The translations under genes and the position numbers were made by a program. Shown here piece after piece: positions 16,901 through 53,260 of a stretch of 59,538 nt of DNA. Origin of the DNA: a virus. Numbering within the stretch: position 1 is the first letter of the stretch; every line of letters begins with the position of its first letter. The notes under the pieces were generated by a model. That model ran no database searches, was not told where the DNA came from, and saw only the letters and a program-made list of their open reading frames with translations. The stretch covers positions 1 through 59,538 of the IMG/VR virus record IMGVR_UViG_3300028888_000014, one strand, 5' to 3'.

Positions 16901-19236
16901 TTCTCCAATGCGTTGAAGAGTCTTTCCGCCCTGTCTTTCTCTTTCTCCATTTCCACTGCGGTTTCCTTGTGTATTCTTTCGAGTTCTCTGCTCTCTCTCA
17001 CAATCTTGATTATCAGCATTAGGACTTCAGCCGCGATTGTGGCGATGAGCATCCAGTGGTTTTTCAGCAGGGAGGTCAGAGTTGCTTTTTCTTTTAGACC
17101 GCCAATTTCATTTTCGAGACCGCTCATTTTCTTTTTGAGAATCTCTTCCCTTTGCATAAGGTTGACAATCTGATTTCTCACACCGGCCTCTATCTCTTTG
17201 GTTCGCAGGAGGTCTTTTTCCTGGACAGCGATGATTTCATTTATTTGAGCGATTTTTTCTTCTTTGGTCAGCGTGGTGCTGGCAAGTATGTTTTTCTGCG
17301 CTTCGAGACTTTTTTGCAGGGCTTTTTCTTTGGTGAGCTGTGCATTAGCCAGCAGTTGGCGTTGCTCTTCTGTCGCTATGGCGTTTTCAATTCTTGCTTT
17401 GTTCTGGAGCTCCCAGTTCATCTCCGCTTCGCTTGCTTTGCCCTGCATCTTCAACCCGAGGATTCTGTTCTCCGATTCCTGCAGGCTTTTCTTCAGCGTG
17501 TTTGTCCTTGCTGCGGACGCTGAGATTTCCTCTTCCAATGCAAGGGATGTGCGTTTGGAAATTTCTATCTGTTTGTTGAGAGCATATTCGGCCTTCAGTC
17601 TTGCATCGCTCCCTCTTGCTACCGCTTCTCTTTGCGCCTCAAGATCTTTGAGATTTTCTTGCATGGCAGCTTCCCTTTTCTTGGACCGTTCGACTTGCTC
17701 TTGCAGTTCGACACGTCGTCTTTCGACCATGGCGATTTCATCTTCTTTCTCCCTATATTGCTCTTGCGCCATCTTTATCTGGTTCTGTGCCACCTTCATC
17801 CCTTTGTACTCCTGCACAATTCCGATTTCATTAAAGCTGTTCTTCAGATTGTCCCAGTTCTTGCGCACTTTGTTGATGGCGAGCATTCCGGCTGCGCCGA
17901 TGGCCATCCATGCGTTCTCGGCGTGGTCCGTCACTCTGGACAGCCACTTGATGACCTTCCCGCCGAACATCGTGTATTTCACGATGTAGGGGTAGAGCTT
18001 CTCGCCGAGTTCCACGCGGGCATCGAACACGGTCTTCTTCGCCTTCTCCATTTGCGCCTGCAGGGTCTCGTTCATCACGGAGTACTCCTCGTTCATGGAG
18101 GTTCCTTCCTTTATGGCCTTGCTGGCGGTCTCCTGGGCGACCCTCACTTTGTCGATGTTGGTGGACAGGGCGAGGATCACCTGTGACGCTCTTGTTGCGT
18201 CAGCACCCAGGTCTTTGAATATGGGGACAATGGCCTGCACGTCGCCGATGTCGTGCAGCTTCTGCAGCACGGCGAGGAACGCCTGGTTGAAGTCCTTGGC
18301 CATGAGGTCCGACAGTTCTTTCTCGCCCATGCCGATCATCTCGGCGAAGCTGCCGGTCTTCTTTATCATCTGCTGCATGATCTTGGTGACGGCGGTGGCG
18401 GACATCTCAGGTGCCTTGCTGTTCTGCGACAGCACGCTGCCGAGACCGGCCATCTGGTCGAGGCTCATGCCGGCGATGGATGCGTAGGAGGCGATGCGCC
18501 CGAGGAACTTGGCGATCTGGCTCTCGTTGGCCGTGCTGGTCTTGCCCAGCTCGTTGATGACGGAGCCGGTGCGGATCAGCGTCTCCTCAAGTCCCGCGTT
18601 CCGGATTTCGCTGGTGGTGTCCTTGAAGACCTGCGCCAGCTTGGTGACCTCGATGATGGCGTCGGTGCCGCCGAGCACGTCTCCCAAGGCCACGTTGATG
18701 ACGTCCGCCGCTTTCACGAACTCCAGCACATCCTCCTTGCCGTTCACGCCCAGCTTGCCGGCGGCGTAGGCCAGCTCGTTGAGTTCCTCCCTCGATGTAC
18801 GGGTGTCTATCTTGGTGAACTCCCTGTTAAGGTCGGCCACCTCCTGCCGCGACAGCATGGTGGTCTTGCGCACCCTTCCCATGGCGTCGTCCAGTCCTGC
18901 CATGTCGGAGGCCAGGTCGCGCATCTTCTGCAGACCTCTACCGAGGAACTGTACGGTTTGCACGATGCCGGACAACACGGAGCCTATCATGCTGATCTGG
19001 TTAAGACGTTCCTTGTTCTTTTCCGTTGAACTTTTTATAAGTCTTTCCTCACGTTCCAAAGCGTCTTGCATCCTGGATATTTCCGCCGCCTTGGCGTAGT
19101 ATTCTTGTGTGCCTTTAGCCATCGCTTTCCACGCTGCCTTCTCTTTCTCCAATCTATTTGTCAGTTCGTCGATTGACTTTTTGGCATCCTTGTTGTTGAC
19201 GTATATGTTTACCGATCTTACTGCTCCTTTTGCCAT
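13936..19236 (-). CDS. Tail tape measure protein (1766 aa)
   Basis: Very long, Glu/Lys/Ala-rich with extensive coiled-coil-like sequence and hydrophobic central segments. It sits between candidate chaperone genes and tail-tip genes. Confidence 0.85.
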   Translation of the reverse strand: MAKGAVRSVNIYVNNKDAKKSIDELTNRLEKEKAAWKAMAKGTQEYYAKAAEISRMQDALEREERLIKSSTEKNKERLNQISMIGSVLSGIVQTVQFLGRGLQKMRDLASDMAGLDDAMGRVRKTTMLSRQEVADLNREFTKIDTRTSREELNELAYAAGKLGVNGKEDVLEFVKAADVINVALGDVLGGTDAIIEVTKLAQVFKDTTSEIRNAGLEETLIRTGSVINELGKTSTANESQIAKFLGRIASYASIAGMSLDQMAGLGSVLSQNSKAPEMSATAVTKIMQQMIKKTGSFAEMIGMGEKELSDLMAKDFNQAFLAVLQKLHDIGDVQAIVPIFKDLGADATRASQVILALSTNIDKVRVAQETASKAIKEGTSMNEEYSVMNETLQAQMEKAKKTVFDARVELGEKLYPYIVKYTMFGGKVIKWLSRVTDHAENAWMAIGAAGMLAINKVRKNWDNLKNSFNEIGIVQEYKGMKVAQNQIKMAQEQYREKEDEIAMVERRRVELQEQVERSKKREAAMQENLKDLEAQREAVARGSDARLKAEYALNKQIEISKRTSLALEEEISASAARTNTLKKSLQESENRILGLKMQGKASEAEMNWELQNKARIENAIATEEQRQLLANAQLTKEKALQKSLEAQKNILASTTLTKEEKIAQINEIIAVQEKDLLRTKEIEAGVRNQIVNLMQREEILKKKMSGLENEIGGLKEKATLTSLLKNHWMLIATIAAEVLMLIIKIVRESRELERIHKETAVEMEKEKDRAERLFNALENVNTTEEQRAEIMKTLNEKYGKYLANLTNEEGQLWNIEAAHRAVIKAIEDEAAAKGFQKAKDKLTDEYMGEGKHFGQNLTEIQNGFEKILLKWVKNPDEKDRAEAARNASKIAEALRAGSGNEEIKTLLSSMGYTRDINALLGTRETFVAGKGMKGELNILVSLSESMDRYREKFSEFNEKIETEAARYGVNLKSGAEKLAADLKELRKYESEFQSETSKMIKASENIRKLNVKKAGFQAFGTEDYAPTATNASAAAAEALAYKKRSEMTGEIVNMIIDKLFDGKTIDQADDKTQKAALTKLENEGIKLLGNDVATMGEEVAEMFTNAAAMVTARIRNASHDGGGGSYNAETDDYDPSSPVTSGKESGKTPEERWADLMKKTAKLNEKASAESLGISSAKETVINTYNAIIKEVESFNETYKGFEERAAAESARLEQEKWDEIARIEDEERAKRLKKIDDNLSSVTEKLNKFRLKQQRKYQTQLETDMKEMENDFGKLGQKAEEERNKLNERKDASLTIGNMFDWSSDTDVVEQAFEDNAELFGKIGLTREKWEEAMKQKPRNAQDLLTLLGLKFDDEDQRKLDKVTEAIKELDKAKLAEMQALTAERSREIVTAMSDSVTRQYREAMKTLEDQILTLEVAQQYLQEHNDGGENDERLKEIEKTLAFLKGRKSDIQTKYDTAFGKDTWATLFGITEEDWAAWDKNWEDNLSKMTDRLRTFADNAFELWSAIDSVMQNQADAELQRYEEMYDSKSAVLKRQLDSGLISQKRYDAQMERMQKEKEKKEKKLKHDAFERERTANLIQGAVNLALTISSVFANEPGGLIIKSAASAIAAAIQATQLAVIASQPNPYYKGGYIHGRQYAVMGEQGDEWVASNRLLRDRETADIIAALDEYQRGDRKALAGISIPQPDLKNVSQAVRAGSGTFAPSNQTTTNNYYQNDNGELLKELRQMNDYLRDPNNRRAYISRKIQLEFDDQEREVRELARL

Positions 19237-23735: not shown

Positions 23736-24098
23736 TCATCCTCCCATGCCTCCGATAATCGGTGCCATCCACGTCATCGGGTTAGGTGCATGTTTTTTCT
23801 TTATTTCTTGTATAGCCCTGTCCTTGCCGTAGTGGAAAGATGTCGTAAAATCGAATTCTGACTTTTCATTCAGGACATAAATGCAATCCTCTGTTTCAAT
23901 TCCTTTTCCGAGAACGTTTCCGAAATCGTCCGTCACTTCATTTAGTTCGCTGAAAAAATCCACCGAGCAGTATGTTTCCCACCACGCCAAGCTCAAGCGT
24001 CTTTGATCCATGGATGTCTTGACTATATCGTATATCGCGCGCTCAAGTTTTATTCTTTGGTCTATGTCCATCGGACCGTCTATGATTTGTTTTTCCAT
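23736..24098 (-). CDS. Hypothetical protein (120 aa), partner of the RHH protein
   Basis: Lies 12 nt downstream of the RHH gene and shares its promoter and terminator. Confidence 0.5.
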   Translation of the reverse strand: MEKQIIDGPMDIDQRIKLERAIYDIVKTSMDQRRLSLAWWETYCSVDFFSELNEVTDDFGNVLGKGIETEDCIYVLNEKSEFDFTTSFHYGKDRAIQEIKKKHAPNPMTWMAPIIGGMGG

Positions 24099-24110
24099 GA
24101 CACGAGGTTT

Positions 24111-24527
24111 TTAGAAATTAGACCATTCCTCGATATTGTTCCCCGGCTTTTCCCAAAAGCGTTTCGCGCGCTTCATCATCGCGGCCGTCTGCGCGGCGGT
24201 GAGGGTTTCCACCTTCTTCCGCATCGTATCAAGGTCGGCGCCGTGGCGGGTGAGGGTTCCCTCGAACTTCTCGCCGTCCTCTATGGTGGCCATCATCAGG
24301 CTCTTGACGCAGATGTACTGCGGCACGAGCATCCTGCTGTTGACCAAGTCGATCAACGCTGTCCACTCTTCGGGTGAGAATTTCCCCTTCAGCTCATCTT
24401 CCGAATACTTGAGCATCTGCTGATGCTCTTCGATTATTTCAAGGACGGTCTGGTTGATGCCTTGGTCGTTGGAGGAGAGTCTATCGTAAATCTCCTCCGG
24501 GATTCTTAACGTGATGTTCTTGTTCAT
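24111..24527 (-). CDS. Ribbon-helix-helix (CopG/Arc-like) N-terminal domain protein (138 aa)
   Basis: The N-terminus NITLRIPEEIYDRLSS..INQTVLEIIEEH fits a beta-strand / helix / helix RHH pattern. Confidence 0.5.
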   Translation of the reverse strand: MNKNITLRIPEEIYDRLSSNDQGINQTVLEIIEEHQQMLKYSEDELKGKFSPEEWTALIDLVNSRMLVPQYICVKSLMMATIEDGEKFEGTLTRHGADLDTMRKKVETLTAAQTAAMMKRAKRFWEKPGNNIEEWSNF

Positions 24528-24551
24528 AATTTTTGGTTTTTAAATTCGCGG

Positions 24552-24559
24552 CAAAAATA
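24552..24559 (-). promoter_or_regulatory. -7 promoter box (TATTTTTG)
   Basis: The reverse complement of caaaaata matches TAnnTTTG, 24 nt upstream of the ATG at 24527. Confidence 0.5.
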
Positions 24560-24622
24560 CAAAATATTTCAATATACACACACTTTGCAAATATTTTTAT
24601 TTGCAAAGTGTGTGCATTGTTT

Positions 24623-25681
24623 TTAAAGCAAGGCGTCTATCATTTCCGCCTTGTAAAGTCTCGCCGGGGATAGTGGCGTGAGGAAGTCGAATCTGTCTAT
24701 CCATATTTCGGTTTTCGAAGGCATTCCGGGAGTGGGGTATTCGATAATTCTGATGTCAAGTATCCGGTACGGCCCGTGGAGCGCTAAAGAGATATCCATT
24801 GGTTCCCGATAGTAAGCCATATTCCCGATGTGCGCTTCCCATAAGCTGTGGTCGTATCTGCATCCGGCTGTTGTATAGGACAATCTTCTCCCTATTGCCG
24901 GCTCATAAAAATGGAAATACTTCTGTGCCGTGGTTCTTTCGTTGTCGTCAGGTCTTGTTATCTGTCCTTTATTGACGATGTTTATTCCGGTATTGAACGC
25001 CGCAACGAACCGTTCCAACGCGCTCTGTCCACTTTGCTTTTCTCCGTCCACTGGTACCCGTCCACTTTGCTTTTCTCCGTCCACCGGTACCCGTCCACTT
25101 TGCTTTTCCGCATCCACCGGCACCCGTCCACTTTGCTTTCCCGCCGCCACTGTCGTCAGTCCACTTTGCTTTTTTCCGTCCACTTGCACCCGTCCACTTT
25201 CGCTTTTCAATGTCTTTGTTTTTTCCATTTTTTTTGCTTTTTTGTCTGTATTTGTCATTCCTATCACAGCGATGTCGCATTTTTTCCCGAGTGCTTTCAT
25301 TGCCGCCTCTGCTGTCATTCCCGTGTCATATACGTTGTCGATGAGCACGAAATTTCCCCGTATTTCATGTCTGTATTTTTTTCGGAACACTGGTTCTTTT
25401 GGACGCTTTCCCGCCTTTTTCATTTCGCACAGTCCGTCACGCACTTCGCCTCTAAGGCAGTTTTCGACTTTGAATCCTCCTTTTTGCGCTATCCTTATTG
25501 TAAGCATCAATGTATATGCAGCATATCCGAACCTTCCCGGTATCGGTATTAGTGTGCTTCCTTCAGGTATCATTGTCGAGAGTGCTCTTGCCGCTTTTTC
25601 TATGGATTCGACGTCTCCTTCCTTTACTTTGCGGCACATTTTTCTGTATGTTCTGTATTCTCCCATGGTGATGATTTTCAT
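24623..25681 (-). CDS. ComF-like / type I phosphoribosyltransferase-domain protein with internal 11-aa repeats (352 aa)
   Basis: LIPIPGR ... NFVLIDNVYDTGMTAEAA resembles the PRPP-binding loop of the PRTase/ComF family. The middle has (SGRVPVDGEKQ)n and the C-terminal 120 aa are unknown. Confidence 0.55.
   Translation of the reverse strand: MKIITMGEYRTYRKMCRKVKEGDVESIEKAARALSTMIPEGSTLIPIPGRFGYAAYTLMLTIRIAQKGGFKVENCLRGEVRDGLCEMKKAGKRPKEPVFRKKYRHEIRGNFVLIDNVYDTGMTAEAAMKALGKKCDIAVIGMTNTDKKAKKMEKTKTLKSESGRVQVDGKKQSGLTTVAAGKQSGRVPVDAEKQSGRVPVDGEKQSGRVPVDGEKQSGQSALERFVAAFNTGINIVNKGQITRPDDNERTTAQKYFHFYEPAIGRRLSYTTAGCRYDHSLWEAHIGNMAYYREPMDISLALHGPYRILDIRIIEYPTPGMPSKTEIWIDRFDFLTPLSPARLYKAEMIDALL
25028..25205. 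repeat. 33-bp tandem repeat, about 5.4 copies, in frame within the PRTase-like CDS
   Basis: Units begin at 25028, 25061, 25094, 25127, 25160 and 25193 (tccactttgcttttctccgtccacyggtacccg). Confidence 0.85.
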
Positions 25682-25699
25682 GTCTTCTCATACTTTGTT

Positions 25700-26134
25700 T
25701 CAAATCAATCCCTCTTCTGCGAACGAATAGTATTTGTCTTCAGTCACTATTATGTGATCCACCAGGTTTATTGAGAAGATTTCCAATGCGGCTTTAACTT
25801 TCTCTGTTATAAGTTTGTCGTTTTTGCTTGGTTTTGTTGAACCGCTCGGATGGTTGTGTATGAGTATTACCTGTGTAGCCAGTGTATCCAGCGCGGCTTT
25901 GCAAACCAGTCTTGCGTCCACGGGTGTGTCCGCCACCCCTCCCTGCGATATCTTCATCCACCCTATGATCATTCCTGCGTTGTTTATCATTATCATGAAG
26001 CAAGATTCGTATAAGTTTATGTCTTCATGATAGAACTCCATGGCGTAGTTGTATGCGTCCACTGAACTCTTCACATACGCTTCTTTGAAGCATTCCGTTT
26101 TTTTAGCTTTTATTTCGTATTTGTATGATTCCAT
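25700..26134 (-). CDS. RadC-like JAB/MPN domain protein (144 aa)
   Basis: VILIHNHPSGSTKPSKNDKLITEKV contains the HNHPSG JAMM-type signature of the RadC family. Confidence 0.85.
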   Translation of the reverse strand: MESYKYEIKAKKTECFKEAYVKSSVDAYNYAMEFYHEDINLYESCFMIMINNAGMIIGWMKISQGGVADTPVDARLVCKAALDTLATQVILIHNHPSGSTKPSKNDKLITEKVKAALEIFSINLVDHIIVTEDKYYSFAEEGLI

Positions 26135-26218
26135 CTTTTTTTCGCCGGTGTTATCCTCTTGGCTCTTGAGTTCTTTTTGAAAAATGCACTAAATACGTGT
26201 CGTGCGCAACTTTTGTTC

Positions 26219-27100
26219 TTAAATCAGGTAGTTGTCCAGGAATTTGTTCATTGCTATGTTCTGCGGCAGGACGTTTGGTATTTCCATTTTGTCCGCTTTG
26301 TACAGTTCTGTCGCGGTGTTGTATATGTCCCACAGCGTCACTGTTCCCTGTTGTTTCTGTTTTATCAATAGCGCTTCCGTGAATGTGCTGATTTGCGTCT
26401 GGTTGAACGGATATGTGTCCTTCATCCGGATTTCCGGGTTCGAGCTGTCATGTGCCACCCTCATGGCTGTCAGTTCCCCGATTATCTGAAGCACTTGTTC
26501 CGGTCTCATGACTGTTTCTCTCATTCTTCGGATGTATTCCTGTTCCTCTCCGATGATTTTCCCGCTTTCCGCCATCCATCTTTCAACTTCTTCGCTTATT
26601 TGGTTCATGTCCCGTTTGTTCCTTCCGTAGTTCGACACCATTCTGTCTGCCCCGAGGATGCACTGGTTGTGGCAGACTTTCACCATGGTCCCGTAAGCCA
26701 CCTGTATTCCGTCCTGATGGAACGCCACGGCCATGTTGGATGTGAACTCTTCCGTGTCATAGTCGAGTATTCTGATGTTGGCGTACACTCTTCTGAGCAC
26801 ATGTGCTTCCACCGCTTTGTACCCGTATCTTTTTTCCACCTCCGGCAGCAGGACCACTCCCGGTTGCGATTTGTCTCTGTTCTGTGCCGCGAAGATCTCC
26901 TCTATTTTCATCTTCAGCCCGTGTCTTTCCGCGATGTCCCTGCACATCTCTATCACTTGCCAATGGTACATTCCTTTGAGCGGGTGTCCCATGATGTCGT
27001 TTTCCTCGTGTGTCCTCTTGAGTTGTTCAAGAGTCAGTGTCTGCACTTTCGCTTTTTCGAAGTCCAGGAATTCTGTGTTTAAGTTTGTTATTTGTTCCAT
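26219..27100 (-). CDS. DUF932-like protein (293 aa)
   Basis: AFHQDGIQVAYGTMVKVCHNQCILG resembles the NS.DGS...G..R.VC.NG core of DUF932. It is adjacent to a RadC-like gene, as in integrative elements. Confidence 0.55.
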   Translation of the reverse strand: MEQITNLNTEFLDFEKAKVQTLTLEQLKRTHEENDIMGHPLKGMYHWQVIEMCRDIAERHGLKMKIEEIFAAQNRDKSQPGVVLLPEVEKRYGYKAVEAHVLRRVYANIRILDYDTEEFTSNMAVAFHQDGIQVAYGTMVKVCHNQCILGADRMVSNYGRNKRDMNQISEEVERWMAESGKIIGEEQEYIRRMRETVMRPEQVLQIIGELTAMRVAHDSSNPEIRMKDTYPFNQTQISTFTEALLIKQKQQGTVTLWDIYNTATELYKADKMEIPNVLPQNIAMNKFLDNYLI

Positions 27101-27130
27101 TTTTTTTGATTTTAAGTTTTTCTGTTCTTT

Positions 27131-27955
27131 TTATGCACGCATTCTTTCTTCATTCATTCTTTCGTTCTCTTCAATCCGTTTTTTCAGTCCTTCTTTCACG
27201 AACTCGTTGATTTTTTCGGTGAGCCCTGGCATCAGAATTGTGATGTCGCACGTCTCTTTGAAGCTTTTCATTTTCATTATCCCTTTCCATTCCTGAATTT
27301 TCCCTGCTTCCGGATATTTCACCTCTTCTATCATTTCCTCTATCGCTGGGATGTCCGCCCCTGATGTGTATTGCGCAATCCCCAGTATGGTTTCCGCCAC
27401 CGATACTTGGGCTGTCGCGTCTCCGTGGATTTTCTGTTTGCTTTTGAATTCGAACGTCCTTAACCTTTCTGTATCCTCTATCCAGCTTCTGTCTTTGTTC
27501 ATCCTCCAGCTTATTCTTGTCGCGCATTCCACCACGGCGGCTCTTTTTGTCAGCGCTATCACGTAGCACATTTCGTCTATTTCACCTCCTGTCGCATTTT
27601 TCCCGCTGAATTGGTTCCTTATGCTTGCCGTCCATCTCTCCGCTCCGTAGTTTCTTTTGTCCCAGAACTTCCCCGCTGCTATCTGGCATACCTTTTCCAA
27701 TACGCATTCGTCTGTGTCTTCCCTCATTTCTTCCGGTGTTCTCATTCCTCGATAGCTGTTGTTTCCGTACCAATCCTGGATTTTCGGGTCGATTTTCCTC
27801 ATGTTCTCGTTCAGTTCTTTCATTCTGTCGTACATTTCGTCGTACGATTTTATTGTGGTCTCCCTCAGTTCTGCCAGGCGGACTATTTTTTCCGTCTTTT
27901 TGTTTCCGAACACTTTCGGAGCCCATTCTTTGAATTTTTCCATGAATTTTTCCAT
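27131..27955 (-). CDS. Hypothetical protein (274 aa)
   Basis: ATG start, ordinary composition, within the accessory operon. Confidence 0.55.
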   Translation of the reverse strand: MEKFMEKFKEWAPKVFGNKKTEKIVRLAELRETTIKSYDEMYDRMKELNENMRKIDPKIQDWYGNNSYRGMRTPEEMREDTDECVLEKVCQIAAGKFWDKRNYGAERWTASIRNQFSGKNATGGEIDEMCYVIALTKRAAVVECATRISWRMNKDRSWIEDTERLRTFEFKSKQKIHGDATAQVSVAETILGIAQYTSGADIPAIEEMIEEVKYPEAGKIQEWKGIMKMKSFKETCDITILMPGLTEKINEFVKEGLKKRIEENERMNEERMRA

Positions 27956-27973
27956 TTTGTTTCTCCTTTCTTT

Positions 27974-28144
27974 TTATCTTTTGTGAAATCCGACTTTCTT
28001 TTCTTCCTTTTCGAGTGATTTGTAGAATCTTGCCAGTGATTCTTTGAGTTCTTTCCACTCTTCGTGTCTGATCAGCTCTCTTTTCTCGTGTCTCACGGCT
28101 ATCACTGTCGCCGCGTTTATCACGCTGTTTGTCGATGCGTTCAT
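27974..28144 (-). CDS. Hypothetical small protein (56 aa from ATG 28144)
   Basis: The track start at 28171 is TTG and overlaps a hairpin; the first ATG is at 28144. Confidence 0.35.
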   Translation of the reverse strand: MNASTNSVINAATVIAVRHEKRELIRHEEWKELKESLARFYKSLEKEEKKVGFHKR

Positions 28145-28169
28145 ATCCTTTTTTTTAAATCGATAAAAC

Positions 28170-28199
28170 AAAGGGGAAAGGATTTCTCCCTCCCCCTTT
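28170..28199 (-). terminator. Possible intra-operon hairpin/terminator
   Basis: Stem aaagggg/cccc-ttt with an inner gga/tcc pairing, downstream of the stop at 28207. The T run is only moderate. Confidence 0.35.
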
Positions 28200-28206
28200 C
28201 TGTTTG

Positions 28207-28710
28207 CTATCTGAGGATTTCATCTTCGAGGCTCTTGAGTTTGCTTTCAATCTTGGTATCCAGCCACTCGCAGAACTCCTTCAGGATTTCCCTGTTGGAG
28301 ATGTTGAACATGTCCTTGAACTCGGCGTTGTACCCTACCGAGGCAAGTTTCCTCAGCGTCAGCTTGCAGAAGTCCACCTCGAAGTCCTTGGATTTCTCCA
28401 GCTTCGATTTGAGTTCCTTCAGTTCCTCCCTTGTGTTAAGGAGTACCTGTCGTTTCTTCGAGGCTTCTTCCCTTTCCTTGCCCTCTTCGATGATTTTCTT
28501 GATCATCCGTTCGCGTTCCGCCGGGTCTTGCATTAAGTTTGCCGGCTTCGTCGCTGGTACTATCTCCGTGCCCTTTGAGTCTGCCGCGGCTCCTGCGATG
28601 GCCTCTGCAATCTGCTCTTTCGTCTTTGCGAGGTCTTTCGAATCAAGCACCACAGCGGTTGTTTCGATGGTGTTGTTCTGGTTCTTGCTGGTTTCGTTGT
28701 TTTTCTTCAT
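28207..28710 (-). CDS. Hypothetical coiled-coil-rich protein (167 aa), first gene of the leftward accessory operon
   Basis: ATG start, E/K-rich sequence, preceded by a conserved 25-bp leader motif. Confidence 0.55.
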   Translation of the reverse strand: MKKNNETSKNQNNTIETTAVVLDSKDLAKTKEQIAEAIAGAAADSKGTEIVPATKPANLMQDPAERERMIKKIIEEGKEREEASKKRQVLLNTREELKELKSKLEKSKDFEVDFCKLTLRKLASVGYNAEFKDMFNISNREILKEFCEWLDTKIESKLKSLEDEILR

Positions 28711-29122
28711 TTTGATTGTTGCCTGTGTTATCCTCTTGGCTCGTGAGTTTTTTTGTTGGATTTTTTTTGTTTGGCTTTTCAGTTTGCCGCGCCCGAAATC
28801 CTTCGCGGGCGGCTGGCGCGTGCGCCTGCCCGCTGCTGTTGTCGTCCGCCCTGTGGCGGTGCTTTGGTCTTCCCGATACTGGCGGCCTCGCGGTTCCCGC
28901 CCTGCCTCCGTGCCGCACTTCTCGCGGTGGCTTCTTTGTTGCTTCGATGCGGTTTCAGTCTTTCAATGAACGGACCCGAAAAAATTCGGGTTGGGTCGCG
29001 GCGGGGTCCTGGTACACTCTTTTTGTTTTGTCCTTTTCTGCTTCTTTAGTTGTCCGGTGCGTTTCCCGCTTTCGCCGTTGTCGCGGGGTGTCGGTGCTGT
29101 GCCTCAACCCTTTAACAATGCA

Positions 29123-29130
29123 CAAATATA
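29123..29130 (-). promoter_or_regulatory. -7 promoter box (TATATTTG) of the leftward early promoter
   Basis: The reverse complement of caaatata matches TAnnTTTG. Operator O1 lies 11 nt upstream. Confidence 0.5.
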
Positions 29131-29141
29131 CAAAAATTATT

Positions 29142-29161
29142 GATACTGTCAACACACAATC
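29142..29161. promoter_or_regulatory. Operator O1: 20-bp dyad GATacTGTcaacACAcaATC
   Basis: Fits GAT-N2-TGT-N4-ACA-N2-ATC; one of three copies. Confidence 0.65.
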
Positions 29162-29186
29162 AAAAATATTTTTATCTTTTTCAGTC

Positions 29187-29206
29187 GATAATGTCAATAC
29201 ATAATC
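29187..29206. promoter_or_regulatory. Operator O2: 20-bp dyad GATaaTGTcaatACAtaATC
   Basis: Same dyad pattern, 10 nt upstream of the -7 box at 29217 and 45 bp centre-to-centre from O1. Confidence 0.65.
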
Positions 29207-29216
29207 AAAAAAGTCT

Positions 29217-29224
29217 TATCTTTG
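29217..29224 (+). promoter_or_regulatory. -7 promoter box (TATCTTTG) for the RHH gene
   Basis: Matches TAnnTTTG, 19 nt upstream of the ATG at 29244. Confidence 0.55.
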
Positions 29225-29243
29225 CCGCCTCAAACAAACAGCA

Positions 29244-29465
29244 ATGGACGAAAAAAAAGTTTCCGAGAAAAAAGCCTCCCGCGGCGGTCGCCGCGAAAAC
29301 GCGGGGCGCAAAGCCCCCGACGGGAAAAAGGCCGTGAATCTGAACATCCGCACAACTCCCGATTTTCGCGTAAAATTGAAAGATTTGGCGCAAAATGAAA
29401 AAATGAGCGTATCGGATTTCTTGCGGTTTCTCGTCACTGACTACGAGAGGCGGAAAAATTCTTGA
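29244..29465 (+). CDS. Ribbon-helix-helix DNA-binding protein (73 aa), candidate switch regulator
   Basis: Basic N-terminal tail (SRGGRRENAGRK), then VNLNIRTTPDFRVKLKDLAQNEKMSVSDFLRFLV, which fits a strand-helix-helix RHH fold. Operators flank it. Confidence 0.6.
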   Translation: MDEKKVSEKKASRGGRRENAGRKAPDGKKAVNLNIRTTPDFRVKLKDLAQNEKMSVSDFLRFLVTDYERRKNS

Positions 29466-29469
29466 TTGG

Positions 29470-29510
29470 AGCGGGCGCGGCTGTGATGGCTTCGCCCGCT
29501 TTTGTTTTTT
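29470..29510 (+). terminator. Rho-independent terminator after the RHH gene
   Basis: 8-bp stem agcgggcg/cgcccgct followed by tttgtttttt. Confidence 0.65.
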
Positions 29511-29562
29511 CTGCTTTTTCGTGATTGTTAGTTTATGGATTTGCAACTCCTTTAAAGTCAAT

Positions 29563-29592
29563 AAAAAAAGCTCGGCGCGGTTAACGCGCCGA
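29563..29592 (-). terminator. Orphan minus-strand rho-independent terminator
   Basis: Stem tcggcgcg/cgcgccga, with an A run on the + strand, which is a T run on the - strand. No annotated - strand CDS ends here. Confidence 0.55.
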
Positions 29593-29728
29593 TACTTTAT
29601 GTATAAAGTCGCCCGCCTCACGCCCTACCCCGTGAGGCGCGCGCCCGCACCCCCGAACACGCAAATATGAGAGGCTGCACAGCGTCACACAGCAGCCGCC
29701 ACAGTGACTGACACAACGAGCCGCGCCC

Positions 29729-29891
29729 CGATGGCGACCAGCACCACGGCGGCAGGGCTGGACGGATGGCGACCAGCACCACGGCGGCAGGGCTGGACGG
29801 ATGGCGACCAGCACCACGGCGGCAGGGCTGGACGGACGGCGACAAGCACCACGGCGGCACGGCTGGACAGACGGCGACCACCGCCACGGCA
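29729..29891. repeat. 35-bp GC-rich tandem repeat, about 4.6 copies, non-coding
   Basis: Units start at 29729, 29764, 29799, 29834 and 29869 (gatggcgaccagcaccacggcggcagggctggacg). The period is not a multiple of 3. Confidence 0.9.
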
Positions 29892-29954
29892 GATAAATAT
29901 AATTTCCTTATATTCAGTATGTTATAAAAACAATTGTTTGTATAATGCTGATAT

Positions 29955-30091
29955 TCAATTTGTTATAAGCTATAAAAAACCGCGTTCGATTTTTGCAAGA
30001 AAAACCCGATTTTGCGCGACTCGTTGATTATCAGTGAATTATAATTTATTGATAATCAATTTGTTATACTAAAAAATACGGATTTTTGCAG
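29955..30091. repeat. AT-rich region with two imperfect direct repeats of about 40 bp (tcaatttgttata ... gatttttgca)
   Basis: Copies at 29955-29995 and 30056-30091, about 100 bp apart, read directly from the sequence. Confidence 0.7.
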
Positions 30092-30194
30092 ATATGACAC
30101 CCACGGAAACGGCACACGATATTTTTTTTGTTTATTATGTTGTAACTAATTGAAACACAGATAAATAAAAACAATAAAAAGATAAAAATAATTT

Positions 30195-30214
30195 TGATTA
30201 TGTGTTGACAATAT
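30195..30214. promoter_or_regulatory. Operator O3: 20-bp dyad GATtaTGTgttgACAatATC
   Basis: Same dyad pattern as O1 and O2, 11 nt upstream of the -7 box at 30226. Confidence 0.65.
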
Positions 30215-30225
30215 CAAATAAAATA

Positions 30226-30233
30226 CTATCTTT
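30226..30233 (+). promoter_or_regulatory. -7 promoter box (TATCTTTG) of the rightward early operon
   Basis: Matches TAnnTTTG, upstream of CDS 30364-30927. Confidence 0.55.
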
Positions 30234-30363
30234 GTAGTGGGTTGATACAACGACAGCCCGCCCGCGTTCCTTGACATATTGACAGAGCGACACCAATTTT
30301 TTTTCAACATATCAAATTTTCCTTTAAAAGTCTTGGGGGTGTGTGGATAACCCCCGCAATAGT

Positions 30364-30927
30364 ATGACTTACACAGAATCAGTTAACAGAGCACGCAGAA
30401 GTAACACGGACAACCGCCTCGCAAACTTGCAGGCCGTGACCAACGCCGCCCGCCGCGCACACAAAAACGTGAGCGCGAATGAGGCCATCGCCCTTTATTG
30501 CGGCGTAAATTTCCGAAATCTTCGGAGTTATAGACAATGTGTTGACGAAATCGGCCTAACGCCCGAACAGATTCACACGCTCCCCACAATTGACATTTGG
30601 GGGGCAAACAGCCCCGAATGGTGCGAACGGACGGGCGCGGCGCGGTTTTTCCCGAAAGCGGCTTTCGACTGCACGAACTTTCTAAAAGTTGACAACCACG
30701 ACCCTGCCGCCGACATTCCCGCCGAACCGATGGACAACACCGCCACCGCGCCAACGTCCGACCTGCTGAGCAGGTCGCAGGAAGCGGAGGACATCGCCGA
30801 CAGTTTTTTTGACGGCGAAACGCCCGCCACGGCGGAAACGCCCAAGGCGGCAAAGAAGCGCGGCGGGCGCGGCAAGAAATCAGCCGCCCCCGTGGAGGTC
30901 GCCACGGTTGACGACCTGCCGTTTTAA
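30364..30927 (+). CDS. Hypothetical early protein (187 aa from ATG 30364; the track start at 30343 is GTG)
   Basis: First ORF after the promoter at 30226. The C-terminus is basic (KAAKKRGGRGKK); no motif recognised. Confidence 0.5.
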   Translation: MTYTESVNRARRSNTDNRLANLQAVTNAARRAHKNVSANEAIALYCGVNFRNLRSYRQCVDEIGLTPEQIHTLPTIDIWGANSPEWCERTGAARFFPKAAFDCTNFLKVDNHDPAADIPAEPMDNTATAPTSDLLSRSQEAEDIADSFFDGETPATAETPKAAKKRGGRGKKSAAPVEVATVDDLPF

Positions 30928-31069
30928 ACCGTTGCGGTGGTTGGGATTCCCCGACCACCGCAACCAGCCCACCTGCCGGACGGCCCGCCAGGGCCTTGAC
31001 CGGCAGGTACAAACCAAAATCCTTTTCAAAAAAAAAGATCCGCGCAGCGGACCGCAACGATAAATTTAT

Positions 31070-31077
31070 TATCTTTG
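31070..31077 (+). promoter_or_regulatory. -7 promoter box (TATCTTTG)
   Basis: Matches TAnnTTTG, 66 nt upstream of the ATG at 31144. Confidence 0.45.
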
Positions 31078-31103
31078 CAAAACAAAACAAACGAATAATA
31101 ATT

Positions 31104-31162
31104 AAACTGACGGGCCGACAGGATAAAACAGGCGACAGACATTATGACAAACAACAGCGACA
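31104..31162 (+). repeat. Copy A of the duplicated leader plus start region (aaactgacgGgccgacaggataaa...cattATGacaaacaacagcgaca)
   Basis: About 57-59 bp, near-identical to 31436-31492; spans the 5-prime UTR and the first 6 codons (MTNNSD). Confidence 0.85.
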
Positions 31163-31419
31163 GCAAAAAAAATCTGAAAACTTTCAGCGAAAAAGCGAGA
31201 GAGTTTTACAACAAACTCAACCAGTTTGTTTCCGAGAACGGCGACACCAGTTATTGCGATCTCCTATTCTCGAATCATGACGGGAAAGGTGATGCTGCAG
31301 CCGCAGCGGAACTGATGCAGTTGAAATACGAAATCAATGGAATAGCCAAGGGCTGCGAGATGTTGATCAAAAACGTTGATTTAGCCTTGGAAGTTTACGA
31401 CGAAAGCGAAGCATTATAA
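31144..31419 (+). CDS. Hypothetical small protein (91 aa), starts MTNNSD
   Basis: ATG start, ordinary composition. Confidence 0.55.
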   Translation: MTNNSDSKKNLKTFSEKAREFYNKLNQFVSENGDTSYCDLLFSNHDGKGDAAAAAELMQLKYEINGIAKGCEMLIKNVDLALEVYDESEAL

Positions 31420-31435
31420 GACATCAATCACATAA

Positions 31436-31492
31436 AAACTGACGAGCCGACAGGATAAACTGGCAAGAACATTATGACAAACAACAGCGACA
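31436..31492 (+). repeat. Copy B of the duplicated leader plus start region
   Basis: Near-identical to 31104-31162. Confidence 0.85.
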
Positions 31493-31890
31493 ACAGAATC
31501 GTGGTGGCATTCCACATCGGCCGCGGAGGCCAATTCTACAACCCTGGTCACAAGACCTACAAGGGCGAAATCAATTTCACGCAGCTGTGCAATTCACAGA
31601 ATCAGTACCTAAATGTAGTAAACCGCGACAGCAACGGGCGGTTCTGCCGTCCGTACCTCTCCGATGACGGTGGAAGCGTGGTCGTCACTCCGGAGGACTA
31701 CGGCAAGGAAGTCGGCACCATCGACTATGACGGAACCTACGACATGTGGGTTTGCAAGTACATAGAAGACTGCGACAATGAAGAACTAATGATGATCTAT
31801 CAAGCTGGGGAAACCAGGACAGAAGCATTCGATTTCGCGAAGAACAAACTTAGCGAAGATGGGATGAGCAACGATGCGCAAATAAGTTAA
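31474..31890 (+). CDS. Hypothetical protein (138 aa), starts MTNNSD
   Basis: ATG start, ordinary composition. Confidence 0.55.
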   Translation: MTNNSDNRIVVAFHIGRGGQFYNPGHKTYKGEINFTQLCNSQNQYLNVVNRDSNGRFCRPYLSDDGGSVVVTPEDYGKEVGTIDYDGTYDMWVCKYIEDCDNEELMMIYQAGETRTEAFDFAKNKLSEDGMSNDAQIS

Positions 31891-31936
31891 AGCAAATAAC
31901 ATCCAAAAAAATATATTACACTTAAAAATCAAGATT

Positions 31937-32233
31937 ATGAAAAAAATTTATGTCATTATCACGGACAAAAAAGAATTTGAAATTTATCTAAAAAGAGATA
32001 ACGCGAACAAAAATCGCGACGAGAAAAGAAACGCAGGAATAAAATGCGACGTGTATATAGTATCAGTTTATGAGGACGAAATATATGTCCCAATGAAACG
32101 TAATAATAGATGGATTATCTATAATAGGCCGAAACATGAAGTAATGTTCGACGGATTTGGTTATGAATTCTGCAATAAACTTAGCAAGGTACTCAACGAT
32201 ATATCTCACCATCGTATCGATGTCGACGAGTAG
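31937..32233 (+). CDS. Hypothetical protein (98 aa), AT-rich
   Basis: ATG start, K/N/Y-rich low-GC gene. Confidence 0.5.
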   Translation: MKKIYVIITDKKEFEIYLKRDNANKNRDEKRNAGIKCDVYIVSVYEDEIYVPMKRNNRWIIYNRPKHEVMFDGFGYEFCNKLSKVLNDISHHRIDVDE

Positions 32234-32240
32234 AAATAAA

Positions 32241-32636
32241 ATGAAACGCTATAAAATCACCATCATTTTCAAGGACGGCACGCGGTCGGAGAACCGCGTG
32301 ACCGCCCGGAACCAGAAGGATGCCGTCGCGCGGCTGATGAACAACGACCAGTTCCGCGCCTTCAGCGACGGCAAGGCGGTGGACAGCATCGGCGTGAAGC
32401 CCATCCCCATCGAGCCCGTGGACGATACCAGGTTCACCGTCCGCACCATCCGCAACAAGAGCGGATGGTACATCGTCGAAGACTCCGTGACCGGAATCCG
32501 GGTAGAGTGGAAGAGGGGGATGTACAACGAGACCAACCGGCCTTTGCTGACCGAAGATCTGACGGCCCTTGAAAAAGCTACCGCACTCCGTGAGATCGGC
32601 GAGTACCTCTACAGCAACTTCCGGGAACTCCTTTGA
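32241..32636 (+). CDS. Hypothetical protein (131 aa from ATG 32241)
   Basis: The upstream part of the track ORF overlaps the previous gene. MKRYKITIIFKDG is a plausible start. Confidence 0.5.
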   Translation: MKRYKITIIFKDGTRSENRVTARNQKDAVARLMNNDQFRAFSDGKAVDSIGVKPIPIEPVDDTRFTVRTIRNKSGWYIVEDSVTGIRVEWKRGMYNETNRPLLTEDLTALEKATALREIGEYLYSNFRELL

Positions 32637-32661
32637 GTTTGGAAGGAAATTTGATATGTGG

Positions 32662-40213: not shown

Positions 40214-41398
40214 TTAGAGACCCATCGACTCGCTGATCTGCTTGTAGTAGGGGTCGTTGTCAACGTACGCGGCGAAGGTGTCCTCGGGGTTCTCCTCGGG
40301 GTCCTTCCCGTTGGTCTGGGTGGCGGCTGCCGGCATGGCTTCGTATTTCTCCTTGAAGTCGTCGCGCTCGGCGGTGAGGGTTTCGATGGCGGTTTTGTCC
40401 TGTTCCGCCTTTTCCTGTGCGGCTTTGAGTTCGTCGGTCTTCTTCTGCAGCTCGGCTCTCACGCTCTCGAGGTCCGCCTTGGCCTGCTTGCCGGCCTTCA
40501 GCTCCTCTTCCAGCTTGCCGAGCTCGTCGGGGCTGAGGGTGAGCCCCTTGGTCTCGTCGAACTCCTTCTCTGCGCCGTAGGCCAGTGCGGCGGCCAGCAG
40601 CGCGAATGTGGTGATGATTTTTTTCATCTCGGTGTGGGTTTGATTAGTGATAGGTGGATTATTTTCGGAACCATTGTCGTCATGGTTGTCCGTTTTCGTG
40701 TTGACTGTCGCCCCGAGTGTCATCCGGGCGTGGTTGAGGAACGAGGCCATCAGCCCTGAGCTCATGCCCTTCGCGGATGCCTCTTCCGGATCCGCCCACA
40801 TCTCGGTGGCGAACCCGTAGTTCACGGCCTCCTCGGCGGTGATCCACTTGCCGTTTCCGTTTGCGGCCTCCATCAGGTCGTCGAGTTCGGAGTTCTTGCC
40901 CTTGAACACCCTGCGGTAGATCTTCATCATCTGCCCGTTGACCTTCTGCTGGAAGTCAAGGTATTCCTTCAGCTCGTTCTCGTTGCCGACGCATCTTCCC
41001 CAGCACTTGTGGATAAGGTAGAGGCTGGTCGGGGAGATCTTGCGCACGCTTCCCGCGCAGGCTATGACCGTGGCCGCGGAGGCGCACAGTCCCGTCACGA
41101 TGGTCGTGACCCTGCATTTTGCCGCTTTCTCGGCGAGCGCGTCGTAGATCTGCAGTGCCGCGTCCACGTCCCCGCCGAGGGAGCTGATCAGCACTTCCAC
41201 TTCGGTCGCATCGCCGACGGCGTCCAGTGCCTCGCGGATCTGCTTGCCGGTATTCACCGGTTCCCAGGTGTCCCAGTCCCAGCCGCCGATGTCGCCGTCT
41301 ATGTTGATGCGCACCACGCCGTTCTCTGGCTCGGCCACGCTCATCGTGAGTTTGCCGGCCTGGACTGTGGCCATGATGCGTCTTTTATTGATATCCAT
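40214..41398 (-). CDS. ClpP/S14-like prohead protease fused to a coiled-coil scaffold-like C-terminal domain (394 aa)
   Basis: LISSLGGDVDAALQIYDAL ... TGLCASAATVIACAG matches the ClpP-family active-site region. The C-terminal 137 aa are coiled-coil and begin at an in-frame ATG (40627). Confidence 0.8.
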   Translation of the reverse strand: MDINKRRIMATVQAGKLTMSVAEPENGVVRINIDGDIGGWDWDTWEPVNTGKQIREALDAVGDATEVEVLISSLGGDVDAALQIYDALAEKAAKCRVTTIVTGLCASAATVIACAGSVRKISPTSLYLIHKCWGRCVGNENELKEYLDFQQKVNGQMMKIYRRVFKGKNSELDDLMEAANGNGKWITAEEAVNYGFATEMWADPEEASAKGMSSGLMASFLNHARMTLGATVNTKTDNHDDNGSENNPPITNQTHTEMKKIITTFALLAAALAYGAEKEFDETKGLTLSPDELGKLEEELKAGKQAKADLESVRAELQKKTDELKAAQEKAEQDKTAIETLTAERDDFKEKYEAMPAAATQTNGKDPEENPEDTFAAYVDNDPYYKQISESMGL

Positions 41399-49250: not shown

Positions 49251-49784
49251 TTAGTATTCGAACCCCATGTTTTTCGGCGGCAGCCAGCCGGTCATCTGCG
49301 CCTGGTAAGGCTCTGCAGGGGCCGACGGCACCTGCGGTTCCTGGTTTACTGGTGCCGTCGCCTGCGCGGGGGGTGCGGGGGGATAGCCCGACGGCGGGGT
49401 CTGCGGCTGCGGGTACTGCGGTGCCGCCGGCTGACCGGGCATGTACTGCGGTGCCGCCGGCTGACCGGGCATGTACTGCGGCTGCATGCTCTGCCTGGTG
49501 ATCAACGCCAGTCCGTAGCATCTCAGTTCTGTGTCGTATCTTTTCCGGCCGTTTTTGTCAATATAGTTACTGCTCTCGGCATTAAACTTCACCTCCACGG
49601 TGGCTCCCTTTGGCACCGCCTTCACTTGCTCCACCGAGCGGCCGAAAGCGCAGAAAGCCACTCTGCGCGAGCGCTCGCCCTCGTTGGTGATGATCTCGAA
49701 ATAGGTTTTCTGCCAGCTGTTGCCGGCCATTGACACCCCGGTCTGCACGGGGTCCATTCCTTGGAATATGCCTTCGATTTTCAT
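49251..49784 (-). CDS. DUF3127-type OB-fold SSB-like protein with a P/Q-rich tail (177 aa)
   Basis: The N-terminus MKIEGIF..PVQTGVSMAGNSWQKTYFEIIT ... VAFCAFG resembles the Bacteroidota DUF3127 family. The tail has QYMPGQPAAP x2. Confidence 0.5.
   Translation of the reverse strand: MKIEGIFQGMDPVQTGVSMAGNSWQKTYFEIITNEGERSRRVAFCAFGRSVEQVKAVPKGATVEVKFNAESSNYIDKNGRKRYDTELRCYGLALITRQSMQPQYMPGQPAAPQYMPGQPAAPQYPQPQTPPSGYPPAPPAQATAPVNQEPQVPSAPAEPYQAQMTGWLPPKNMGFEY
49423..49495. repeat. 30-bp tandem repeat, about 2.4 copies, in frame in the SSB-like tail
   Basis: gtactgcggtgccgccggctgaccgggcat repeated, starting at 49423, 49453 and 49483. Confidence 0.8.
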
Positions 49785-52634: not shown

Positions 52635-53260
52635 TAAGCTCTGCTCTCTTCCGTGTGCGTGAATGTCTCCAGCACTGCGCTGCAGAGCCTGTCGAACAGG
52701 GTGGAGAAGGCTTTCGATGCATCGTCCATTTCAGGGAGCCTGCCTTCGTTAAGCAGCCAGCAGCCGATTCTCTCGTCAATCCATCCCAGTCTCTCGTGCA
52801 CGGGGTCGTACTTGTGTACTTTGCCGGTCAGCCACTCGTGGATGCGGGCCGCGCTGTCGGTGAGCCCTCCGGCCACGGCGATGTGTTCCGCCCGTTGGAT
52901 GTGCTGGTATCCCACCTTCTGCAGCAGCGCGTTCCTTATCTCCTTGTGGAGCGCATGTCTCTGCTGGTCGCATTTATCTACGGCGACCAGCATTTTCTCT
53001 TCGTACAGCTCCGCCCGGTCGTGCGGCCACACCCGCCTTATCTCCCGGACGCGCCTGTCGATGAAGTCGAGGATTTCGGCCAGGTTCAGCATCGCCAGCC
53101 CCGAGGACTGCACCTCCTTGAGGTTGCGCAGGAACCTGATCTCGTCGCGCAGGAAGCGCACGGCGGCGTCTTCGAGGATGACCAGCAGGTCGCGCTGGTT
53201 GTTGTCCAGGTTCTTTTTCCCGCTTACCGATGTTATGGGGATCGTCACGTGCCTTTTCAT
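52634..53260 (-). CDS. Hypothetical protein (208 aa)
   Basis: ATG preceded by GGAAGGAGG; higher GC than its neighbours. Confidence 0.5.
   Translation of the reverse strand: MKRHVTIPITSVSGKKNLDNNQRDLLVILEDAAVRFLRDEIRFLRNLKEVQSSGLAMLNLAEILDFIDRRVREIRRVWPHDRAELYEEKMLVAVDKCDQQRHALHKEIRNALLQKVGYQHIQRAEHIAVAGGLTDSAARIHEWLTGKVHKYDPVHERLGWIDERIGCWLLNEGRLPEMDDASKAFSTLFDRLCSAVLETFTHTEESRA

Follow-up and report, generated by a model that had tools for sequence, protein, structure and literature searches.

A variable-number tandem array in the non-coding core of a putatively ribbon-helix-helix-controlled module of a temperate Bacteroidales phage

The DNA considered here is a viral sequence of 59,538 nucleotides (IMG/VR record IMGVR_UViG_3300028888_000014, positions 1 to 59,538; the whole stretch is called the window throughout) that represents a tailed temperate phage or prophage, and the element under study is a GC-rich tandem array of 35-bp units at 29730-29890 within it. 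The array belongs to the non-coding core of a ~1.2-kb module that is probably controlled by a ribbon-helix-helix (RHH) protein in a temperate Bacteroidales phage. Our preferred reading, to which we give a probability of roughly one in three, is that the array works at the level of DNA, as a variable number of binding sites or spacers placed between divergent promoters. Regulation in the phages of Bacteroidales is almost uncharted, and the locus presents a compact, self-contained and testable switch made up of one probable RHH repressor, three promoters that bear operators, one predicted small-RNA family and the minisatellite; should the array tune that switch, the phage would possess a minisatellite-based heritable rheostat over an accessory island, probably one devoted to establishment or anti-defence. 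In what follows we draw on the corresponding loci of relatives, which were retrieved from rumen and gut metagenomes and from IMG/VR through homologues of two encoded proteins (of 73 and 194 aa) and through invariant non-coding words. The host order was assigned as Bacteroidales because one Bacteroidales metagenome-assembled genome (MAG) is among the retrieved matches.

The array and the AT-rich block beside it

29730-29890, no strand: GC-rich tandem array, 35 bp x 4.6 by Tandem Repeats Finder, with homologous arrays at the same position in relatives
29891-30190, no strand: AT-rich block with dyad symmetry centred near 30042, repeated 21-mers and two sites that match the consensus for integration host factor (IHF)

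A preliminary description of the sequence counted about 4.6 copies of a 35-bp unit, and Tandem Repeats Finder recovers the same array at 29730-29890 (period 35, 4.6 copies, 94% matches, score 273, the top score of any single-unit period in the window). Because independent assemblies of close relatives (L003, L004, L027 and L030) carry the same array, it is not an assembly artefact. The units run contiguously, head to tail, without the unique spacers of a CRISPR array, and they share a core (GATGGCGAC...CCACGG...GGACG); T makes up 4% of the plus strand of the array. The core motifs are found nowhere else in the window, and multi-copy matches to them in IMG/VR are confined to this lineage. A general regulator motif was rejected on the ground that the array motifs are unique to the array, and a restriction or methylation target was set aside since GATGG, GGATG and other core words are neither avoided nor enriched elsewhere. 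A 22-mer match in L022 proved to be a chance match within an unrelated GC-rich coding region.

Every relative locus with intact sequence at this offset has a GC-rich tandem array there, with the following periods and copy numbers:

Period 35 bp: 4.5, 4.6 and 5.6 copies
Period 43 bp: 2.6 and 4.0 copies
Period 44 bp: at least 2.1 copies
Period 47 bp: 2.9 and 3.9 copies
Period 50 bp: 2.0 and 4.0 copies
Period 52 bp: 2.4 copies
Period 34-35 bp: 5.6 copies of a distinct unit in L037, preceded by (CACACC)14

Overall the arrays hold 2-5.6 copies, with 90-100% identity among the units of one array. The units are homologous across clades, being built from GATGG(G)AGC, a variable insert of GACACC-type strings, CAGCA-CCACGG and a tail, and they differ mainly by insertions and deletions; plus-strand T is held at 2-8% in the arrays of all clades, a strand asymmetry common to the whole lineage. 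The array boundaries are sharp and fixed relative to conserved flanks, and unit length and copy number change faster than all surrounding sequence. The variation in repeat number that had been proposed for inspection in related phages is present, as phages with 99-100% identity over 600-bp flanks can have different numbers of copies; both 2-copy forms are MEGAHIT assemblies and possibly collapsed repeats, yet a difference persists in two further pairs assembled by that pipeline. Expressed as helical phase, a period of 35 bp corresponds to 120 degrees, 43 bp to 34, 44 bp to 69, 47 bp to 171, 50 bp to 274 and 52 bp to 343 degrees. Short-read assemblies break at the array, and the type of its unit offers a possible fine-scale marker for strains of these rumen and gut phages. 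In L037 the (CACACC)14 microsatellite (positions 69-152) directly adjoins the 34-35-bp array, which suggests a slippage-prone site.

An array that encoded a repetitive peptide, or a contingency open reading frame (ORF) that shifts frame with copy number, would account for the ORFs that run through it on both strands and for the ATG that each unit holds inside GATGG. These frames are open, however, because one strand is nearly without T and the other nearly without A, so that no stop codons arise. None of the clades has a period divisible by 3, the frames downstream end at points that vary with the number of copies, the peptides predicted for different clades bear no relation to one another and no start context is conserved. 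A coding role is on these grounds scarcely credible, and the dismissal of the overlapping ORFs in the preliminary description is borne out by all clades.

Neither does the array have a shared fold. The CCAGC...GCTGG hairpin of 5 bp that had been ascribed to each unit is confined to the main unit of the window: in variant units of the closest relatives one arm is altered with no compensating change in the other, and the hairpin is missing from other clades. Comparison of the clades reveals no conserved helix within the unit or across the unit junction, and the 333-nt region folds only about 2 standard deviations better than shuffles (z ~ -2) on both strands. We also rejected G-quadruplexes or R-loops formed through minus-strand G-tracts: the tracts are kept in the region of the small RNA described below, but because the G/C skew of the array reverses in the window's clade there is no consistent R-loop model.

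Among the non-coding sequences of the window, array-like depletion of a single base is seen in just one other place, the leader of the leftward operon (28711-29118, ~410 nt, minus-strand sense), in which plus-strand A amounts to 0.025-0.05 in 120-nt windows; coding regions at 40281-40520 and 51421-51560 likewise include windows of 120 nt with at most 5% A. There is a likeness between the sense strand of this 410-nt leader, which is poor in U, and the plus strand of the array, and it conflicts with the orientation of the terminator discussed below.

To the right of the array, the stretch described earlier as extremely AT-rich is the window's minimum: 29896-30196 is the most AT-rich 300 bp of the 59.5 kb (GC 0.253), and the minima at 100 and 200 bp fall there too. 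The block shows dyad symmetry, matching its reverse complement around a centre near 30042. Its two ~40-bp direct repeats, likewise reported before, withstand a shuffling control (31 of 44 columns identical in a gapped alignment, with 0 of 2000 shuffles scoring as well), and they are part of larger repeat families, namely a 21-mer in four copies (29907, 29948, 30049 and 30125), a 44-mer in two and GATTTTTGCA in two. An invariant CGATTTTGCGCGACT lies at 30007-30021 and continues ...TGTTGA in relatives. Every clade has 1-4 IHF-consensus sites here, where ~0.05 would be expected. A second copy of the flanking blocks, such as would form a pair like ori and crr of P4, was looked for and not found.

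The control module and its predicted small RNA

29122-29235, no strand: left promoter/operator arm, forming inverted repeats I1/I2 with 30176-30235 and containing exact TAnnTTTG boxes whose positions are kept in all clades
29168->29161, minus: leftward -7 box TATTTTTG
29130->29123, minus: leftward -7 box TATATTTG, with TTG at a 19-nt spacer
29140-29163: left 24-bp operator palindrome
around 29185-29208: degenerate second operator
29217-29224, plus: RHH promoter box TATCTTTG
29244-29465, plus: gene for the 73-aa RHH protein (Pfam NikA-like, E=5.5e-5, below the curated cut-off)
29468-29513, plus: terminator of the RHH gene, a GC stem and then TTTTGTTTTTT, both stem and T-run being conserved, in convergent orientation to the small-RNA terminator
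30176-30235, plus: right promoter/operator arm, which drives the 194-aa gene and its operon
30189-30196, plus: -7 box TAATTTTG
30227-30234, plus: -7 box TATCTTTG of the right arm, with TTG at a 19-nt spacer
30194-30217: right operator palindrome

The module (29122-30235, ~1.2 kb) is bracketed by inverted repeats, one of 60 nt with 82% complementarity and another of 32 nt with 84%. What is repeated is a promoter pair of Bacteroides geometry, TTG-N19-TAnnTTTG, the consensus for which comes from PMC4747536; two of the module's promoters point leftwards, two point rightwards and one belongs to the 73-aa gene. A 24-bp palindrome, TTGAT-N14-ATCAA, is present at every one of the module promoters. In the 73-aa protein, the only one that the module encodes and one for which NCBIfam yields weak MobA and ORF56 matches, the long, basic N-terminal arm and the helices are conserved and the beta-strand is the most variable segment. 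The beta-strand is the part of the RHH fold that reads DNA, and three types of this strand match three operator cores one-to-one. Because the operator core covaries with the DNA-reading strand, the RHH protein is likely a repressor of the leftward operon, of its own gene and of the rightward operon.

The RHH protein was also considered as the binder of the array and rejected, since it is the palindromic operator and not the array that covaries with it and since the RHH cassette is also found without the array in the MAG. Arrays of 35, 43, 47 and 52 bp all co-occur with operator type 1. The cassette in question comprises promoter, RHH gene and terminator (29097-29558) and recurs at 98-99% identity in a non-phage context in the Bacteroidales MAG (L026 9857-10315, CAMVBK010000019.1), where a perfect duplication of 35 bp encloses it; the duplicated sequence is a host promoter-like repeat found six times within 12 kb. 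Two other contigs (L028 and L029) carry the cassette as well, and the homology stops 14 nt before the minus-strand terminator. The presence of the cassette outside phage and without the array means that the RHH protein does not need the array; the copy in the MAG may be a host capture of the phage repressor cassette that could confer immunity. BLAST of the region against deposited phages and plasmids, and of the RHH protein against plasmids, gave no matches, and no partition NTPase (ParA/ParM) was found with Pfam, PHROGs or NCBIfam in the low-GC island that surrounds the module.

Between the RHH gene and the array the module contains a predicted small RNA (sRNA) on the minus strand:

29563-29656, minus: predicted sRNA of ~90 nt, from nine variants, covariation, RNAalifold and a terminator scan, with a predicted 5' end
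29647-29634, minus: GC hairpin at the 5' end of the sRNA
29630-29608, minus: invariant 23-nt stretch GGGUAGGGCGUGAGGCGGGCGAC in the sRNA
29609-29605 / 29598-29594, minus: 5-bp hairpin in the sRNA
29592-29585 / 29579-29572, minus: terminator hairpin of the sRNA, with an 8-bp stem
29569-29563, minus: U-run of the sRNA, seven T
29660-29670, minus: candidate sRNA promoter, an 11-mer TCATATTTGCG containing CATATTTG that is invariant in all clades

The ~230 bp that separate the RHH stop codon from the array are more conserved than the RHH protein itself. The minus-strand terminator that had been noticed here as terminating no annotated gene is sound, with an 8-bp stem (29592-29572) followed by T7; across the variants its stem is invariant, its loop is variable, one pair is compensatory and the U-run measures 3-7 nt. 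About 95 nt upstream of the terminator, and on the terminator side of the array, lies CATATTTG (29669-29662), a 5/6 match to TAnnTTTG. From TCATATTTGCG to the T-run the nine distinct versions of the sequence are all exactly 115 nt long. A three-hairpin model of these nine sequences leaves 97.5% of cells paired, against 31-48% in slid controls. In four of the pairs both partners have changed, a number attained in 2 of 500 shuffles, and the covariation score is 0.160 (0 of 500 shuffles), a moderate support that comes from only nine related sequences. A further pair reads G-C in five of the sequences and G-U in the other four, which is compatible with a minus-strand RNA only, and folds of single sequences have z values from -1.65 to -5.6. 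On these patterns of conservation we think it probable that a leftward sRNA of ~90 nt exists, running from ~29655 to ~29565 and free of repeats. The preliminary description had envisaged a minus-strand RNA of about 330 nt that included the repeats: the conserved, covarying RNA does end at the orphan terminator, whereas its boundaries are probably those of a ~90-nt RNA without repeats, because the promoter-like box lies between the array and the terminator and no conserved promoter lies upstream of the array.

The GC hairpin that was earlier placed to the left of the array is present in the window (arms 29610-29622 / 29631-29643, 92% complementary). As a conserved structure it was rejected, for its left arm is invariant and its partner arm changes register between clades; what is seen is a pairing, peculiar to the window, between the invariant stretch and a partner that varies. 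The Rfam search once proposed for this region yielded no family match, as Rfam 15, at the gathering threshold and at E<=1, returned only chance microRNA matches for the window and six relatives, and the predicted sRNA constitutes a new family. It is not antisense to any annotated gene and is convergent with the RHH gene, so placed that the minus strand downstream of its terminator is the antisense of that gene. A target search of the window with the invariant 23-mer of the sRNA brought up no duplex that stood out, and a match to an array strand was specific to the window's clade.

What the array may do

The array occupies a spacer with the sRNA box on its left and the promoters of the rightward operon ~300-355 bp to its right. 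In our preferred reading it would act as DNA, and not as RNA or protein. A conserved factor would read the shared core of the units, and the array would offer a variable number of candidate sites for this factor as well as a spacer. Gain or loss of units would then change both the occupancy of the array and the rotational and linear distance that separates the bent AT block and rightward promoters from the sRNA promoter, and a change in copy number could thereby heritably tune an sRNA/RHH switch that controls the island. Several observations weigh against this proposal. No array-binding protein was identified, the operator sequence is unlike the units, the 194-aa neighbour has no recognisable DNA-binding fold by AlphaFold and Foldseek, and the RHH cassette occurs without the array in a bacterial genome. 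A double-stranded site does not require 2-8% T on one strand, a composition that resembles the nearby transcribed leader. The sRNA box begins with C where the consensus has T and lacks a -33 element, unit phases spread over 34-343 degrees argue against cooperative, phased binding (PMC4980987), and the copy numbers come from short-read assemblies that may be collapsed.

The layout of the locus also lends itself to a replication origin, the function first suggested for it, in which the units would be iteron-like initiator sites, the AT block an unwinding element, and divergent transcription the source of negative supercoiling. Direct repeats indeed abut the most AT-rich 300 bp of the window, the AT block is dyad-symmetric and enriched in IHF-consensus sites in every clade, and promoters diverge on both of its sides, a layout resembling that of iteron origins such as RK2 oriV (PMC4980987); the SSB-tip-like tail of the 194-aa protein (see below) could recruit host replisome partners. 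Against an origin, there is no Rep-like gene in or beside the module (Pfam, PHROGs, NCBIfam and PADLOC), DnaA boxes are absent in 7 of 8 clades with one mismatch allowed, and the units lack helical phasing. The genes for the primase-helicase and for the single-stranded DNA-binding protein (SSB) are 16-19 kb distant, no plasmid or phage replicon shares the region in BLAST against deposited phages and plasmids, and the units measure 34-52 bp against a usual iteron length of 17-22 bp (PMC4980987). Phages with an identical RHH protein and nearly the same unit nevertheless have 43 or 47 bp per repeat, close to a half-turn shift, and a half-turn shift is reported to abolish iteron cooperativity (PMC4980987). 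The known origins of RK2 (oriV), pSC101 and R6K, together with lambda ori and the ori of SaPI, share with the locus the direct repeats by an AT-rich block, the IHF-type sites and the flanking promoters (PMC4980987); here, however, the unit sequence changes between otherwise near-identical phages, and neither helical phasing nor an adjacent Rep gene is seen. We therefore hold an origin to be unlikely, and were the array one, it would be the first origin mapped in this phage group.

A further account has the array transcribed as a tandem-repeat RNA, either as the 5' part of an sRNA precursor or as a decoy that titrates a host RNase or RNA-binding defence protein, in which case an arms race would provide the selection that explains unit turnover. 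Units of 34-52 nt in 2-5.6 near-identical copies, with rapid divergence and unstable copy number, match arrays of the ToxI type: ToxI has 5.5 copies of 36 nt, ToxI-Bt 2.9 of 34 and antiQ 2.8 of 35 (PMC5086642), and the toxin-less pseudo-ToxI of PhiTE has 1.5 copies that expand to 4.5-5.5 (PMC5086642, PMC3475682). The periods are free of codon and helical constraints, one base is almost absent from each strand, and a conserved leftward terminator lies downstream. A near-consensus leftward box, with a single mismatch, does occur at the edge of the array in 4 of 9 loci, although the closest relative of the window is not one of them. Conserved exact -7 boxes are restricted to the five promoters described above, and none adjoins the array on either strand in any clade. 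The terminator is ~135 nt away and is explained by the shorter predicted RNA with its own invariant promoter-like box. Type III systems are recognised by promoter and toxin (PMC12283969). The array has no conserved promoter of its own, and no toxin or defence domain, and no ToxN, CptN, TenpN or Abi, was found in the island with PADLOC, Pfam, PHROGs and NCBIfam. The lack of Rfam matches in window and relatives and the lack of conserved helices and of strong folding, both described above, speak against an RNA as well, as do the GC-rich units, unlike the A/U-rich antitoxins known so far, and the scarcity of type III systems reported in this phylum. Compared with ToxI, CptI, TenpI, antiQ and the PhiTE pseudo-ToxI, the locus has in common the intergenic phage location, unit size, copies and a terminator that lies downstream, though at ~135 nt, and differs in that it shows no sequence or structure similarity to them, has no toxin gene and has a terminator that probably belongs to a separate short RNA. 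All told, a transcribed array appears quite unlikely. In its most specific form, a toxin-less repeat RNA made from a non-canonical or phage-specific promoter that would be a GC-rich analogue of pseudo-ToxI and a decoy for RNA-targeting defence of Bacteroidales, the idea is more doubtful still; the precursor would possibly also yield the ~90-nt sRNA, with the single A (or U) per unit marking a processing site, and the array would then stand for a new class of anti-defence RNA.

Lastly, the array might be a tolerated minisatellite, that is, a slippage-prone, non-transcribed spacer without sequence-specific function of which only the total length is weakly constrained, and which would last because repeats are formed anew at the site again and again. 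Its rapid unit turnover and unstable copy number would fit, as would the (CACACC)14 tract that hints at a slippage-prone site beside the L037 array, the several other tandem arrays in the same genome, and the fact that no partner protein, promoter or structure was found for the array. A mere minisatellite would hardly be expected, however, to persist at two or more copies in every lineage sampled while neighbouring proteins drop to 46-60% identity, to keep the core GATGG(G)AGC...CCACGG in all unit types and the strong single-base depletion in all clades, or to retain sharp boundaries fixed relative to the conserved flanks. We accordingly rate this account as quite improbable.

Three further systems bear comparison with the module as we prefer to read it. 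In immI of phage P22 the RHH repressors Mnt and Arc are accompanied by sar RNA; the likeness lies in a small RHH protein that here probably represses through palindromic operators at closely spaced promoters, in a convergent, terminated short RNA and in a setting among late genes, whereas here no antirepressor homologue was recognised and the sRNA is not antisense to an annotated gene. To our knowledge P22 immI has neither a tandem array nor an AT-rich block. At nadA of Neisseria a repeat tract lies between an IHF/repressor site and the core promoter, and contingency loci of this type share with our locus a variable tract between IHF-type sites and a core promoter in which each unit shifts the phasing; the units here are 34-52 bp instead of 1-7 bp and have a conserved sequence core. 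RHH proteins also bind repeat arrays on plasmids (omega of pSM19035, ParR/parC and ParG/parH), which resemble the locus in an RHH gene beside direct repeats and in an RHH protein with a long basic N-terminal arm. Unlike in those systems, there is no partition NTPase, the RHH beta-strand covaries with the 24-bp operator and not with the array, and the cassette occurs without the array. The combination of RHH protein, operators, sRNA, minisatellite and bent AT block is new among otherwise known phage control regions, and nothing in it so far is categorically new.

The neighbouring operon and the rest of the phage genome

30343-30927, plus: gene for the 194-aa protein, first of the rightward operon, with an SSB-tip-like C-terminus

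The 194-aa family (the window's protein and P0012-P0021) combines a conserved domain at the N-terminus with a disordered, variable linker and, at the C-terminus, a T-x-DDLPF that is strictly invariant. The C-terminal tip of SSB docks replisome and repair proteins, and the 194-aa family shares this C-terminal-tip architecture. As a recognisable DNA binder or initiator the protein was rejected, the AlphaFold model of its N-domain being of moderate confidence, with pLDDT values (predicted local distance difference test) of 72-83, and no Foldseek/PDB match below E=1.

Two relatives, L010 and L011, have an RHH protein 100% identical to that of L009 and L012 and an array unit almost like theirs, and their 194-aa protein is 87% identical to that of the L005 clade and only 56% identical to that of L009; L036 has the mirror mosaic pattern on the left side. 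Because pairwise identities reveal mosaicism at the module edges, the stretch from the RHH gene through the terminators, conserved block, array and AT block to the operators is inherited as one module, with cargo operons exchanged at its edges. In L035 the rightward operon carries a pair of genes (972-1435), for a DUF2683 protein and a ParE/YoeB toxin.

Gene order around the module is kept among the relatives. On the minus strand come (PcfJ, PcfK,) RadC, a DUF932 protein and three small genes, followed by the 73-aa gene (plus), a non-coding gap of 0.8-1.1 kb, the 194-aa gene and its operon (plus) and a gene of 564-576 aa (minus). Genes recognised elsewhere in the window include the following:

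79-1200: integrase
13936-19236: tape-measure protein
40214-41398: head maturation protease
46380-49235, minus: DUF5906 primase-helicase, which with the SSB gene lies 16-19 kb from the array
49251-49784, minus: SSB gene
55302-56867: DNA methyltransferase

Nearly all genes of the window lie on the minus strand, and the sole plus-strand block falls within a low-GC island of ~24-32.6 kb (GC 0.43-0.50 against 0.55-0.64 elsewhere) situated between the head and tail modules. The island (24000-32650) carries RadC and DUF932, with PcfJ and PcfK in relatives, a set that is more usual in conjugative elements than among the structural genes of phages. The lowest point of the cumulative GC skew, near 31 kb, falls at the switch in gene strand, and GC skew, confounded in this way, is uninformative as an origin marker. 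A packaging site was rejected, as no terminase gene was recognised nearby and contigs end at the array only through assembly breaks induced by the repeats.

A 208-aa protein (52634-53260, minus) has a faint Pfam match to Sigma70_ECF (E=0.0095, below the cut-off). If this assignment to the ECF (extracytoplasmic function) type of sigma factor is real, phage-specific promoters that consensus scans miss could exist. Repeats of other kinds are found in the genome as well. A second large tandem array (25027-25208, 33 bp x 5.5, with a 99-bp period also scored) lies in frame within an ORF at 24623-25681 (minus), where it gives 11-aa protein repeats, and one relative's version of the gene encodes 338-344 aa. 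The SSB gene, for its part, contains a perfect in-frame tandem repeat of 30 bp x 2.3 at 49413-49481.

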